From assembly GCA_963842085.1 (NCBI GenBank), contig CAWJET010000001.1:2592001-2656000 (forward strand): 64,000 bases of DNA, given 5' to 3'. Below, piece after piece: positions 1,009 through 64,000 of the stretch. The notes below the pieces were generated by a model. The model was given only the letters and a program-made list of their open reading frames with translations, did not search any database and was not told the origin of the DNA. Position numbers and translations under genes: made by a program. This DNA is from an uncultured delta proteobacterium. Its GTDB lineage: Bacteria > Desulfobacterota > Binatia > Binatales > Binataceae. Every line of letters starts with the position of its first letter. Positions within the stretch are counted from its first letter, which is position 1.

Positions 1009-4000
1009 TCAACGAGCGAGCGAAGGCGTCGCACGCTTGGGAGCAGGAGTAGAGGTCGAGGTCGATTTGAGCTCGGCCAGAATAGCTTTGGCAGTTTTCA
1101 GCTCCGGCCAATCGAATCCTTCAGTGAACCAGTCGTGAATGGGCTGCAGAATACCAAGTGCCTCTGCTTGCCTGCCGCTGTTCATGAGCATTCGGCTCAA
1201 GCTGGTTGCCGCCCGCAGTTCGAGCGTCTTCGCGCCGCGCGCGCGGGCAATCTCAATAGCTTTGCGAAAGCTTTGTTCGGCCTCAGATTCAGCTTCTCGA
1301 ACATTCGCCGGGTTCGATGAAGCACACGCCTGTCTCAGCTTCAGTTCTCCATTGATCCTGCATAATTCGGACTCTACGTATCGCTCGTCGTTGCGCTCCA
1401 TCACCTCCCGAGCTTCGGCGAGCAATACTAAAGCCATATCTACTTGTCCGAGGCTGCCTAATGATTCTGCTATCGCCGATCGAGCCCAAGTGTGCGCCAG
1501 CTCATATCCTGCTGCGGAAAACCCACCGGGGGTGCCACCTCCTGCGGTCATCAGATCTATTCTTCCTCGTGCGGCCGCACTCATCGTGCGATAGGCGATC
1601 AGCGATGCTTCAAAAAAAGCGAACCCATACTCTTTAGTGAGGGTGAGTCCTTCGGCTATTACTTTGTCGGCGGCTCCATAGTCATGACGCATGGTGCAGT
1701 ACATGGCGATCATGGTGAGACACCAAGTTAGAGTGAACGGATATCCCAGCTCACGGGCAAGGACGATTGCCTCCTGCGCCTTTCTTTCAGCTTGATCGGG
1801 ACAACCAAGCATCCACAGCGTCATCGTATCGAAACAGAGGCAACTAACGCACGGGTCCTGGCCGAATTGGAACGCCAGCGTTCGGTGCTTTTGCTGATCG
1901 TACAGCCCGATACCCCGCCGGAGACTCGCGTGCGCCTCGGCAAATTGGCCCTTAAAGAATCGACTACAACCCGAGGCCCAGTCTGCCTGGACCAGCATGC
2001 CGTCATTTTGCAGGCGCGGCGCCAGGTGAGTCATCTCATCGGCGTAACCGCATGCCATTGCGTGCTCACCGCGAACGAGATGGAAGCTCCACAGGCCGAA
2101 TAGCACCGAAAATAGCCTTGAATCATCACCCAAACTCTGGCATAGCTCCCGAGCACGCCTATAAGCGCTTCCCATCTCAGGAGCATACCAACCCTTGGTG
2201 GCGAGCAGCGCGACACCAAAGTCGATTTGTATGTCCAGTTCGCGCCGCACGCGCTCTTGAGAGTAGGGCAATCCTTTGAGCAGCTCCAGGGCATTCTGGA
2301 AAGAACGAAGCGCTCCTTCATACGCGCTTTGCTTCAGTGCCTGAGCCGCAGCGAGCGCAAGGTACTGAACGGTCTTGTCAGCATCGGCAGCCCGGCCCGC
2401 TTGCCACAAGTGATGCGCCAGATCGCCCGCCTGGTCCTCGAGAGCATCGGCGTGCACGCGCTCGATAGCGTTGGCCACATTGAGATGGAGCCGTTGACGA
2501 CGCGGGGCGGACAGATCACTCAGGACTGCCTGGCGAATCAGCTCATGGGAGAACTGAAAGCTCGCCTCCGGATAGCCCAAGGTCGAGTAAATCAATCCTG
2601 CCTTTTCTGCTTCTTCGACGTAATCGAGCAGCGAGTCCGCGTCCAGGTTGGTTGAGGCTTCAAGGAGTTCGAAGGTGAACGAACGTCCTATGACCGCGGC
2701 GGGTCCCAGGATTTTTCGCGCTTGATCGCTAAGCCACGCGAGCCGCCGTCCTATAACCAGGCGCAGGCTTTGTGGCACGTCGATCGCCGCAAGATTGAGA
2801 TCACGGCGAAACTCCCCGTTGCTATCCAGAAGCCTGCCGCGCTCGATGAGATGGTGGAAAAGCTCCTCGACGAAGAAAGGATTCCCATCGGTGCCCAAGT
2901 AGATAAGGTTCACGATCGCGGGCGGCGGTTCTTTTCCACTTAGGGCGCGGATCATCTCGGCGACCGAATCCTGCGGCAGGCCTCGCAGACTGATCCGCTC
3001 GAGCATATGGATGCGCAGCAACTCGTCGAGGGTCTGCGTGAGGGGACCGGCGGAATCGAACTCGTTGTCGCGAAAGGTGCCCAGAATCAGCACAGGAATT
3101 TTGGAGATCGAGCGCGCAATATGATTCAGCAGCGACAGAGTTCCCTCGTCGGCCCAATGCAAATCTTCGAAGAGCAGAAGGATCGGACGAGTCGCCGCGG
3201 TCCGGCCGAGAAGTTCCACAACCGCATTGAAAAGGATCCTTCGCGATTGCTCCGGCGAAATTTCCAGCGGCGGCGGAACGTCCGGGAAGAGGCGGCGTAG
3301 CTGAGGCATCAAGCGAGCCATCTCGCCCGCGTCATTTCCGAGCGCAGTTCGGAAGGCTTCCTGGCTCGGCGATTGAGCCATCGCGGACTCGAGGATCTCA
3401 ACGAACGGGTTGAAGGGGAGGGAGTTTTCGCGATCGTAGCAACTGCCGACCAGCGTGATGAATCCTCGATCCGCAGCCTCTGCCGCAAACTCGGCGGCGA
3501 TCCGAGTTTTGCCCACGCCAAGCACGCCTCCGATCATCGCCACACCGCCCTTGCCGCCAAGCGCGCGTTCAAGCAGCCGGCGAAGTACGGAGCGTTCCGC
3601 TTCTCGGCCGACGAAAGTAGTGCGATCGGCGAGCGACTGGACGAGGCTGTTTTGAGGCCGCGAAAAAATCGGTGCAGTGACTTCCGCGACCGCGGAAGGC
3701 TTGATGCCCTCGTCGAGGGAGAACTGCCACGTTATCGGGGCGTGAGGATTTGCAAGATAGCAACTGAAGGATCCGGTCCTGATCGATCTGTCCAGCTGCT
3801 CGCCCAGTTGGCCATTATGCTCGGAAATTTTCTGCAGCGCAGACTTGATCGCGCGAGTGACGTTGAGCCGCGCACGCTCGGCCGCAGATCCCGCGCGCCG
3901 GTCGCGTCCGCCGAGACCGACCGCACGGGCTATCTCGCGCAGGAGAAAATCAATCTCGCTCTCAACCCGAGCGGCACGCGCCTCGTCGCCACGTTCCCGC

Positions 4001-62438: not shown

Positions 62439-63053
62439 ATGCTGGATACGATTTTCGGCGCGAACCCCGACCTCAAGCGCATGCAATCGCGATGCGCCCG
62501 CGCGCTCTTCCGCCTCGGCATCAGCGCGAACGCCGCGACGATTCTGGCCGCGATCGCCGGCATCGCGTCGGGGATCGCGTTCGCGCGCGCCTACACGACG
62601 TGGGCGATCGCCACGCTCGCGCTCAGCGCCGCCTGCGACGCGCTCGACGGCACCATCGCCCGTGAATGCGCCGCGCCCAGCCCGCTCGGCGGCGTGCTCG
62701 ACCTGTCGGCCGATCGCGTCGTCGAGGCCTGCGTAATCGTCGGCATCGCGTGGCGCGATCCCGCCCTCTATTTCCCGGCGTTAGTCCTGGTCGCCACCTG
62801 GTACGTGAACATCACGATATTTCTCGCAGTAGGAGCCGCGCTGGAAGGCCCAGGCGCCAAGCTAATCGAGTACCCACCCGGAATCCTTGAGCGCACCGAA
62901 GCGATAATTTTTTTCGTCGTGCTGGGCCTGCTGGAAGCAACCGCAATCACCCGCCCAATAGGCCCAATACTCTGCTACGCGATGGCAGCGCTGGAAATAG
63001 CAACCGGCATCCAACGCCTGCTCTTCGGCCTGCGAAAGCTGCGGGCGGAGTGA
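62439..63053 (+). CDS. CDP-alcohol phosphatidyltransferase family protein
   Basis: Signature DALDGTIAR...GGVLDLSADR, and ERTE. Confidence 0.9.
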   Translation: MLDTIFGANPDLKRMQSRCARALFRLGISANAATILAAIAGIASGIAFARAYTTWAIATLALSAACDALDGTIARECAAPSPLGGVLDLSADRVVEACVIVGIAWRDPALYFPALVLVATWYVNITIFLAVGAALEGPGAKLIEYPPGILERTEAIIFFVVLGLLEATAITRPIGPILCYAMAALEIATGIQRLLFGLRKLRAE

Positions 63054-63080
63054 TCTCTGCTCATTGGATGCAGCAACGCA

Positions 63081-63161
63081 GAACCGGAACCGGCGGCGCT
63101 TACGCGCCGCTGTCCGAGATCCTTTCCTGCGCTCGCGTTGCTCGCTTCGGTCAGGATGACA
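63081..63161 (+). repeat. REP-like repeat copy D (variant hairpin)
   Basis: Same flanks as the other copies, but the first stem is GCGGCGC-TTAC-GCGCCGC instead of GCTTCGC-TGGC-GCGAAGC. Confidence 0.9.
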
Positions 63162-63223
63162 AATCATCGTCTCCATGGCGGCGGTGCCGGTTTTCCTAAC
63201 ACTGGGTGCAGGGTCACCCCTGC

Positions 63224-63283
63224 CTACTCCACCGTCACCGACTTCGCCAGGTTGCGGGGCTGATCGACGTCGGTGCCGCACTT
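63224..63283 (-). pseudogene. glmS: Isolated 3'-terminal fragment of glmS (att-like remnant)
   Basis: Minus strand translates KCGTDVDQPRNLAKSVTVE*, the conserved GlmS C-terminus. An in-frame TAG (63284-63286) lies immediately upstream and there is no start codon at the head of the fragment. Confidence 0.9.
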
Positions 63284-63298
63284 CTAGTGCGCTGCTGC

Positions 63299-63841
63299 TC
63301 ATCCGACTGCGGACGGAATCTGCCCGCGCAGTTCCTTGACCACATCGTTCGCGACGCTGGCGAAGATCGTTTTCCATGCGCCGATCGTATAGGCCCCGCC
63401 GAACGACACGGTCCGATGCGCATCGACCGACCCGACCAGTTTTCCACTGACGCTCTCCTTCAACTCGCAATGCAGCGTGATGACTGTGCTGCCCCATCCG
63501 GGGAGCATCCACCGCTTGAAGGCGTTACCTTCGTCATACTCGATGATTTTGGTGGCGATGGTCAGATGGTTGCCCTGCTGACCTTGCGTCCATAGCAAGT
63601 TTTCGCTTTGCAATTGTTCACTGAGCGCATCGGTGAACATCTTTTGCAGATCGACGTCGAACGTCTTGCCGGTTTCATTGCTAACCGGGCCGACTTCGAT
63701 GCGGGTGTCTGCCTTGGGCACGAAGGTGGGTTCGAATTCCGCGCTGTGGCTCACTGAGCCGCATCCGGACCCCGCCATCGCCAAACTCCCGAGCAGACAC
63801 AGTATGACGAAGTTCTTCAGTAACCACGCGCGTCGAGCCAT
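63299..63841 (-). CDS. DUF4410-like lipoprotein
   Basis: Lipobox-like GSGC and IIEYDEGNAFKRWMLPGWG motif. GAGGA RBS. Confidence 0.7.
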   Translation of the reverse strand: MARRAWLLKNFVILCLLGSLAMAGSGCGSVSHSAEFEPTFVPKADTRIEVGPVSNETGKTFDVDLQKMFTDALSEQLQSENLLWTQGQQGNHLTIATKIIEYDEGNAFKRWMLPGWGSTVITLHCELKESVSGKLVGSVDAHRTVSFGGAYTIGAWKTIFASVANDVVKELRGQIPSAVG

Positions 63842-63869
63842 AGCGGGTTGTCCTCGAAGTTGAAGCACT

Positions 63870-64000
63870 CTAGTGTTCGGCCTTCTTCACCAATTGCGCT
63901 TGAAGCTCCATGGTCTTTTCACCCTTCGGGTCCAGCTCCTGCTTCCATTGCTCGTATCCGGGAGCGTCGACCGTAACCTGAAAATGGTTGTGGCGGTACC
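63870..64000 (-). CDS. 3' end of a gene entering from beyond the window (PEGA/carboxypeptidase-regulatory-like tail)
   Basis: Manual translation gives ...YRHNHFQVTVDAPGYEQWKQELDPKGEKTMELQAQLVKKAEH*. Confidence 0.5.
   Translation of the reverse strand, partial: YRHNHFQVTVDAPGYEQWKQELDPKGEKTMELQAQLVKKAEH

Follow-up and report, generated by a model that had tools for sequence, protein, structure and literature searches.

An orphan copy of the glmS 3' end in a soil Binataceae genome as a probable scar of homology-driven gene acquisition

The stretch of DNA analysed here (the window) comprises 64,000 nt from the genome of an uncultured member of the Binataceae (G000:C1:2592001-2656000, G000 being the window's own genome). 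Close to its right end there is an orphan copy of the 3' end of glmS, separated from the intact gene by two lipoprotein genes. With moderate confidence, we regard this orphan as the scar of a homology-driven insertion-duplication that joined two gene orders and that is not specific to glmS. The end of the gene is present on both sides of an insert for which empty sites are found in relatives, the insert contains no recombinase gene, and the same layout appears at nine unrelated genes of the same genome, so glmS is not a special target. Positions outside the window are given in locus L009 (C1:2654001-2670000), in which the addition of 62000 converts a position to that of the window; the coordinates of all features are collected in Table 1.

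The duplicated glmS tail and its insert

The minus-strand translation of positions 63224-63400 reads ...SAVG*AAAH*KCGTDVDQPRNLAKSVTVE* (asterisks, stop codons). The encoded peptide thus ends at a stop codon (63224-63226) and follows another one in frame (63284-63286, minus-strand reading), as an earlier note made from the sequence alone had described for 63224-63283. The stop codon of the adjacent DUF4410 lipoprotein gene (63299-63301) is located 15-19 nt upstream of the fragment. That note took the whole peptide for the GlmS C terminus, which alignment with the glmS of G000 bears out for 17 codons (GTDVDQPRNLAKSVTVE) and not for the leading KC, which is not GlmS sequence. The true homology is made up of 2 nt upstream, these 17 codons, the stop codon, and 8 nt past it, so that the duplicated stretch amounts to 64 nt and divergence begins 9 nt past the glmS stop. 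It matches G000:C1:2656998-2657061 on the same strand at 60 of 64 nt (94%, E 1.2e-21), and the four differences are all synonymous third-position C/G changes. Weaker matches to the query used in the own-genome search (window 63180-63300) were many and came from the dispersed hairpin repeat adjoining the orphan. In agreement with this search, whole-genome self-BLAST finds exactly two copies of the tail, in direct orientation and 1,718 nt apart. The window itself holds no glmS body; the intact gene had been predicted to lie past position 64000 on the minus strand, and it was found there, 1.72 kb further on and in the same orientation.

The region was compared with 40 relatives, and the spacing between glmS and the CDP-alcohol phosphatidyltransferase gene, its native convergent neighbour at the empty sites, was measured by tblastn at 15 loci. 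Only 31 nt (G001) and 35 nt (G021) separate the coding ends of the two genes at these empty sites, which supports the proposal of the earlier note that the genes from position 63299 on were inserted; in G041 they are likewise ca. 30 nt apart. The gap measures 116 nt in G011 and 94 nt in G014, with dispersed repeats in both, 2.1-3.8 kb in many other relatives, where a prolyl oligopeptidase gene is found, and 13-26 kb in G018, G012, and G006, where it holds ordinary metabolic and transport genes. A second glmS tail was present at only two of the 15 measured loci (G000 and G023). It should be noted that G018 and G023 are unpublished genomes, on which all statements about them rest and whose use in print needs the permission of the depositors. 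The interval is variable even where there are no tail duplicates: the prolyl oligopeptidase (S9) gene is present in L024-L031 (G013, G016, G003, G007, G022, G004, and G012) and missing from the interval in G000, G001, G021, G011, G014, and G023.

The flanks of the two tails differ. G014 and G002 are the relatives closest to G000 in glmS identity, and in both the stop codon of the gene is directly followed by the same repetitive extragenic palindromic (REP)-like hairpin that adjoins the orphan, a repeat with dozens of weaker matches in G000. In G008, the first 8 nt of this hairpin are present after glmS. In G000, the native stop-plus-hairpin arrangement is kept by the orphan and not by the functional copy; the sequence after the glmS-proximal tail agrees with the hairpin over no more than its first 8 nt and then continues into other repeats. 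Since the orphan is contiguous with the REP flank seen at the G014 and G002 glmS, it would most simply be the original resident end of the gene, and the end now used by glmS would have come with the insert. The distal tail copy of G023 keeps the flank seen at the G001 empty site.

Assembly support

The stretch is present in seven soil-metagenome runs belonging to two studies, with a share of the sampled words of at least 0.68, and the contigs of four of these runs (one of which may be the source sample) were aligned to L009. One contig per run spans approximately L009 1250-2799 (1250-2728 in one run) with 0-2 differences, beginning inside the orphan tail and then crossing both cargo genes. Further contigs cover L009 1133/1135-1256/1278 (hairpin and orphan) and 2803-3060 (spacer and functional tail), and in all four runs the depth of the cargo contig is about equal to that of the unique flanking contigs. 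As short-read contigs bridge the junction between orphan and cargo, the arrangement is not a misassembly. The genome was derived from a soil metagenome, and a chimera in which the assembly had run from one strain haplotype into another would have the same layout. However, the junction is crossed in four runs from two studies with hardly any differences and similar layouts occur in separately assembled relatives, so we judge an artefact of this kind to be very improbable.

The same layout at other genes

Plus-strand whole-genome self-BLAST, restricted to pairs of 40-200 nt that are at least 85% identical and 0.2-30 kb apart, gave 95 direct-repeat pairs, 33 of them with three copies or fewer. 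Ten low-copy pairs were inspected, including that of glmS, and at every one of these loci a long open reading frame (ORF) has its last 45-179 nt repeated as an orphan located 0.6-12 kb downstream. The host genes are unrelated to each other, and four of the cargos at the nine other loci contain toxin-antitoxin genes (Table 1). In a crude, uncurated ORF map, the 3' geometry was found in ca. 20 of 65 low-copy pairs and a mirror-image 5' geometry in ca. 7. In the one 5' case that was inspected, a TylF-type methyltransferase gene follows the orphan start of a NicO-like gene and precedes the intact NicO-like gene, and the similarity stops 8 nt upstream of the start codon.

At the phosphotransferase (APH) locus, both parental gene orders are present among the relatives. 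In G013 and G052 the gene is followed by the flank, with a single tail, and the orphan and flank of G000 align there as one piece. In G041, G001, and G023, the gene is followed by the same toxin-antitoxin pair as in G000, i.e., these genomes have the donor-type gene order, with the cargo natively after the gene. G000 itself has the gene, the toxin-antitoxin pair, the orphan tail, and the flank, in that order. The G000 cargo ends inside what in G041 is a higA-like remnant, and therefore the join was made at an arbitrary point of the donor. In G041, an 87-nt direct repeat flanks the Gp49/helix-turn-helix (HTH) pair (L079, G041:C44, 1475-1561 and 2357-2443, counted with the locus turned so that the phosphotransferase gene reads forward). 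This repeat resembles the end of a higA-like gene, the body of which is truncated, and suggests that the pair of G041 arose by nested events of the same kind.

Recurrence at glmS among relatives

The 47 genomes of the genus were searched with an 88-nt DNA query and then with a 40-residue protein query. Extra partial glmS tails were found in eight of them, seven by DNA (G000, G023, G041, G056 with two, G059, G061, and G062) and one more, G009, by protein. They correspond to at least five independent events at glmS within the genus, with inner boundaries that range, when another genus is included, from 1 to ca. 27 nt upstream of the motif GGCACC (Table 1). The PEGA and Lipoprotein_16 proteins of G056 are only remotely similar to the cargo proteins of G000, and the G009 insert carries an additional NHL-repeat-like gene (identified by eye).

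In G056 and G041, glmU is immediately followed by a tail that is joined to the left half of the promoter region of glmS. The genes between glmU and glmS (L042, G056:C9, 8363-10214; L047, G041:C13, 2342-4193), which include a 182-aa ORF without a family match, most likely form a restriction-modification set. About 22 nt of promoter sequence are found on both sides of this set, and the glmS of G041 is on another contig.

Older copies are degraded. A decayed glmS-tail relic is present on contig 2 of G000 (L049, G000:C2:1543000-1549000, positions 2492-3090) beside a NIPSNAP-like 106-aa gene, at a locus that lacks glmS. G062:C8 has an orthologous relic, and the sequence upstream of the G000 relic matches the cargo of G059, G061, and G009. 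The surroundings of the contig 2 relic are rearranged among relatives, and its insertion site is therefore not reconstructible. Frameshifts were found in the older orphans (G009, G062, and contig 2 of G000), which indicates that orphans are not maintained.

A class-wide scan of 401 genomes gave many with two matches. Most of the second matches in the 15 that were inspected are full-length paralogues, and clear orphans were seen in G272, G009, and G254. The matches in G356 and G239 are located at contig ends, which precludes a judgement on them. In G254, which belongs to another family, the orphan tail lies 361 nt downstream of glmS (L061, G254:C1:3909000-3916000), and the small ORF between them, with CxxC pairs, looks by eye like a zinc-finger antitoxin-type protein. 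A literature search limited to duplicated or truncated glmS ends as terms found no description of them.

Mobile-element explanations

The earlier note had offered three explanations for the orphan: an integrase-driven island aimed at glmS, a recurring cassette array of glmS tails, and a spare or decoy attTn7. An array is excluded by the insert, which holds only two tail copies. No integrase, transposase, or tns genes (tnsABCD among them) were found between the copies in the 1.72-kb insert, where both cargo ORFs match only DUF4410 and PEGA. The integrase-island proposal does not agree with these cargo ORFs, which lack any recombinase match, and is not favoured by an inner boundary that varies by up to ca. 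27 nt. The integrase family PF00589 has 14 matches in the genome, the nearest of them 4.5 kb away. This is a XerC-like gene (312 bits to TIGR02224) that adjoins hslU on the far side of glmU, and as a housekeeping gene it was discarded as the driver of the insertion. No integron integrase was seen either, the XerC-like protein scoring 134.9 bits against a cut-off of 265, although no attC or genome-wide IntI search was made.

Direct repeats of the 3' end of a gene are the classical footprint of integrase-driven islands, and a recombinase could also act in trans. The tail-flanked modules would then be non-autonomous integrative elements with the glmS end as their attachment site, the integrase being encoded elsewhere or lost. 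Such elements could explain why three glmS events (G000, G023, and G056/G041) have their inner boundary within 1-3 nt. They could also explain the NIPSNAP-like gene and tail module downstream of glmS in G059, G061, and G009, whose tail, spacer, and flank recur away from glmS in contig 2 of G000 and in G062 (with the gene itself in G000). We nevertheless find integration in trans quite unlikely. The boundaries of the other glmS events are offset by ca. 12, 24, and 27 nt, the nine other inspected genes with the same layout show no shared motif, and the orphans decay, with frameshifts in the three cases mentioned above. In the relatives, no integrase or transposase was found among the ORFs scanned from tail-bounded inserts (the pair of G023 was judged only by eye). 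The same is true of the variable regions next to glmS in nine relatives (2-26 kb), with no recombinase among 86 ORFs scanned; these had been hand-picked from 140 that passed a filter on third-codon-position GC (GC3), out of 215 ORFs of at least 100 aa, and gave prolyl oligopeptidase, transporters, and metabolic enzymes. With this outcome and a tail duplicate at only 2 of the 15 loci, the idea of the variable region as a mobile-element hot spot was dropped.

Integration in trans also receives no help from the metagenomic contigs of the four runs, in which no interpretable joint linking the two tails (excision) was found, although contigs cannot show rare forms. The joints 1271>3295, 1277>3295, and 3052>3294/5 were rejected as excision products, given short sides of 29-36 nt and unknown letters in between, and most likely come from the glmS genes of relatives. 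The joint 1219>2770 was likewise rejected, as it connects two copies of the REP repeat.

TnsD recognises the C-terminal coding stretch of glmS in E. coli, and Tn7 makes a 5-bp duplication ca. 25 bp downstream. Both tail copies contain this coding stretch, and the orphan could thus be a Tn7-like remnant or a spare or decoy TnsD site kept by selection. This origin is largely refuted and hardly credible. The insert begins 9 nt past the stop codon and duplicates 64 nt instead of 5 bp, and its ORFs are lipoprotein genes with nothing tns-like among them, so that the earlier note was right to set classical Tn7 aside. The decoy idea that it kept is opposed by the finding of the same tail duplication at nine other inspected genes, which are unrelated and no Tn7 targets, and by the decay of the older orphans. 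TniQ (PF06527) had no match in the genome, a weak argument since the control genomes were silent too.

Origin and mechanism of the duplication

Of the 321 codons compared between paired copies at the 10 loci, 34 show a synonymous and 15 a nonsynonymous difference (4 and 0, respectively, at glmS), and one pair has AGG in one copy and CGC in the other, both coding for arginine. The synonymous excess agrees with a history in which two alleles diverged, both of them still coding, whereas in a duplicate decaying in place, by a rough estimate, less than half of the differences would be synonymous. Within the last 135 nt of glmS, G003 has 5 mismatches to G000 and the other aligned relatives have 12-27 (G056 was partly aligned); further upstream in the gene, G014 is the closest and G003 is not. 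The G003-like tract extends upstream of the duplicated part. As for the cargo, a copy of the PEGA and DUF4410 pair with 82% nucleotide identity is present at a non-glmS locus in G053, and the pair is a conserved two-gene unit in other lineages too. Among 150 other genomes of the family, the cargo DNA matched only G053 and, more weakly, G363. The neighbours of the cargo in a G053-like record (L054) have their counterparts dispersed over G000, and therefore synteny is uninformative.

We envisage that DNA of a related lineage, carrying the conserved end of glmS followed by different downstream genes, would enter the cell and recombine with the resident chromosome through the glmS homology, by one crossover within the gene. 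The second join, that of its other end, would lie immediately upstream of the resident tail. It would be an illegitimate one, or else the point at which a fragment had closed into a circle before integrating in Campbell fashion. The resulting order would be the glmS body, the incoming tail, the cargo, the resident tail, and the native flank, and the process would need no element-encoded recombinase. The orphan, without a function of its own, would then decay. Such an event would be tolerated because glmS stays intact, and it would recur at glmS because the end of this gene is very conserved and borders a variable region. The repeats might always include the gene end because only the events that spare the host gene survive. 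Similarly, the excess of short diverged repeats and of toxin-antitoxin cargo could be explained if both slow down the loss of the insert by recombination between the repeats.

Several facts weigh against this homology-driven route. No useful microhomology was found at the junction between orphan and cargo beyond 2 nt (GC) already within the repeat, which does not favour an illegitimate join, and a donor with the order glmS-PEGA-DUF4410 and no orphan was not found among the 150 other family genomes. The mosaic signal in glmS is modest, with few sites and with a relative picked post hoc from 22. The check with independent contigs covers the glmS locus only, and the other nine loci come from one metagenome-assembled genome. 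At all 10 inspected loci the repeat ends at the stop codon or within ca. 9 nt of it, as would also result from a mechanism aimed at gene ends, and the glmS events of G000, G023, and G056/G041 cluster within 1-3 nt of the point between CGC and GGCACC, more tightly than random fragment ends. Finally, both tails of G000 have CCCCGCAAC and the 8-nt flank GCAGGGGT in common, which also fits duplication in place.

Two alternatives deserve to be considered. A dedicated landing at gene ends is rather doubtful. Modules of one to three genes would carry, as a homing adaptor, a piece of 45-180 nt from the end of a conserved host gene and insert exactly at the stop (or start) codon, leaving an orphan. The glmS gene would be the most reused pad, with five or more events in 47 genomes, the modules would be cassette-like, with an unrecognised recombinase or with none of their own, and toxin-antitoxin cargo would guard against loss. 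The module cargos seen are toxin-antitoxin pairs, a restriction-modification set, and lipoprotein pairs. Long target duplication in place seems to us unlikely. Here, foreign DNA would be captured and 45-180 nt of the target duplicated during the repair of a break, or of a fork that had stalled, at the end of the gene, by end joining with long staggered ends or by template switching. Such an event would be in keeping with the lineage-specific bases that the two G000 tails share, with the G056 pair identical over ca. 77 nt and the APH pair 98.9% identical, with repeats ending near stop codons throughout, and with the lack of a recombinase gene in the inserts scanned. However, the predominance of synonymous differences, the AGG/CGC pair, the G003-like tract reaching beyond the duplicated part, and the presence of both parental gene orders among relatives at the APH locus all speak against it.

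On this evidence, the orphan is better described as an ordinary gene-acquisition scar beside an essential gene than as a glmS-homing element or an attTn7 decoy. Its interest lies in the generality of the footprint and in cargo rich in toxin-antitoxin genes. The places at which small accessory modules entered a genome, and the manner of their entry, can be recognised by orphan gene ends, a simple marker for which the sequence suffices. In this genome the marker is found at 10 loci or more, four of them with toxin-antitoxin cargo, and the end of glmS has been reused across a genus of uncultured soil bacteria. If these footprints do reflect the uptake of DNA from relatives followed by insertion-duplication, they would provide indirect evidence, and a measure, of genetic exchange in a lineage not yet brought into culture.

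Other features of the locus

Regarding the cargo genes, the DNA between the two tails that carries them is single-copy (self-BLAST), as is the DUF4410 gene by itself, with its likely start at an ATG at 63841, and only the 3' part of the PEGA gene (63870..64000) is within the window; its translation shows an LSAC lipobox. A glmS ribozyme precedes the intact gene, and the same leader is also recognisable by eye upstream of glmS in G056, G041, and G059. The repeat of ca. 100 nt next to the CDP-alcohol phosphatidyltransferase gene, similar to a miniature inverted-repeat transposable element (MITE), has ca. 90% identical copies in many genomes of the genus and in G011 is located between this gene and glmS. 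An additional dispersed repeat unit of ca. 118 nt is found at L009 2715-2832. Dispersed short repeats of this kind behave like active miniature mobile elements, because copies that are 85-95% identical span many genomes of the genus.

Table 1. Features of the glmS locus, other loci of G000 with the same layout, and events at glmS in relatives (inner boundaries are distances upstream of GGCACC)
Feature or locus	Position	Strand	Evidence, cargo, or boundary
CDP-alcohol phosphatidyltransferase gene	62439..63053 (L009 439-1053)	+	Pfam PF01066, E 1.1e-12
Dispersed ~100-nt repeat, MITE-like; native flank, outside the insert	63060..63164		66-84 overlapping self-BLAST matches
REP-like hairpin repeat (GCAGGGGTGACCCTGC core); native glmS downstream flank, directly after orphan stop	63192..63224		Self-BLAST coverage 11
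Orphan copy of glmS 3' end	63216..63279	-	Alignment to glmS of G000
Orphan/cargo junction	63280..63298		Direct reading and contigs from 4 runs, 2 studies
Cargo gene 1, DUF4410 lipoprotein	63299..63868 (L009 1299-1868)	-	Pfam PF14366, E 2.8e-12
Cargo gene 2, PEGA-domain lipoprotein	L009 1870-2313 (window-equivalent 63870-64313)	-	Pfam PF08308, E 2.7e-6
Spacer, ~690 nt, non-coding, partly dispersed repeats	Between glmS and PEGA gene		Self-BLAST
Intact glmS, 617-codon ORF, SIS and GATase domains	L009 3006-4859 (window-equivalent 65006-66859)	-	Domain scan
glmS ribozyme in glmS 5' leader	L009 4966-5128 (G000:C1:2658966-2659128)	-	RF00234, 76.1 bits (gathering score 37)
glmU-like gene	L009 5210-6631	-	Domain scan
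Other loci with the same layout, G000:C1	2476326/2477254, 1981319/1982267, 2773977/2774698, 3113446/3114513, 428419/429526
Other loci with the same layout, G000:C2	661037/661797, 768774/769653, 1409007/1410331, 1358361/1370812
Host ABC permease			Cargo TumE toxin
Host phosphotransferase (APH)			Cargo Gp49-like toxin and HTH protein
Host Asp/Glu racemase-like gene			Cargo BrnT and CopG antitoxin
Host Clp-type AAA protein			Cargo HicA and HicB
Host starch-synthase-like glycosyltransferase			Cargo epimerase-family enzyme (short-chain dehydrogenase/reductase, SDR-type)
Unassigned host gene			Cargo luciferase-like oxidoreductase
Host alkyl-sulfatase-like gene			Cargo chalcone-isomerase-like protein
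Host HtrA-like protease			Cargo AurF-like oxygenase
Host 225-270-aa ORF (not scanned)			Cargo 12-kb island
glmS event, G000			DUF4410 and PEGA; boundary 2 nt
glmS event, G023 (unpublished)			RelE/ParE-like and Phd/YefM-like pair, by eye, 0.72 kb; boundary 1 nt
glmS event, G056			PEGA and Lipoprotein_16 protein; boundary 24 nt; two copies identical over ~77 nt
glmS event, G059, G061, G009			NIPSNAP-like 106-aa gene; boundary ~12 nt, decayed
glmS event, G056, G041			HTH controller, 182-aa ORF, N4/N6 DNA methylase; boundary ~3 nt
glmS event, G272 (another genus)			Glycosyltransferase and P-loop protein; boundary ~27 nt
glmS event, G254 (another family)			One small zinc-finger ORF, by eye; 361-nt insert; orphan ~90 nt

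Comparison with known systems

Tn7 at attTn7 uses the same gene end and the same general place just downstream of glmS. The present insert differs from it in the lack of tns genes and in a duplication of 64 nt instead of 5 bp (the end repeats of Tn7 were not searched for). Tn7-like elements that target glmS have been described, and the available part of that description mentions no duplication of the glmS end (PMC11014353).

Islands driven by integrases at the 3' ends of tRNA or protein genes resemble our case in that the target is kept intact by a replacement end and a partial copy of the gene end is left at the far edge, here as direct repeats identical at 60 of 64 nt. Our case differs from them in lacking an integrase within or beside the insert, in the small size of the inserts (0.4-3 kb), in the variable boundaries of the repeats, and in the many unrelated genes affected. 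Tycheposons are cassette-like islands with repeated attachment remnants. The modules found here share with such islands and with integron cassettes the small size of the cargo (one or two genes, in many cases a toxin-antitoxin pair) and the short repeat that delimits each of them. However, the repeat is here the end of the upstream host gene rather than a common attC-type site, and no array was found.

The closest parallels are Campbell-type insertion-duplication and homology-facilitated illegitimate recombination, both known from laboratory work (PMC3240628, PMC3784515), and duplications generated by transformation have been described in pneumococcus (PMC3784515). As in these processes, entry would take place through one stretch of homology and no element-encoded recombinase would be needed, and, as in Campbell-type insertion-duplication, the homologous segment is duplicated on both sides of the insert. 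These processes have been observed in competent model bacteria in the laboratory, whereas here we find natural footprints in an uncultured soil lineage, with a duplicated homology that is mostly 45-180 nt long and confined to gene ends, and with frequent toxin-antitoxin cargo.

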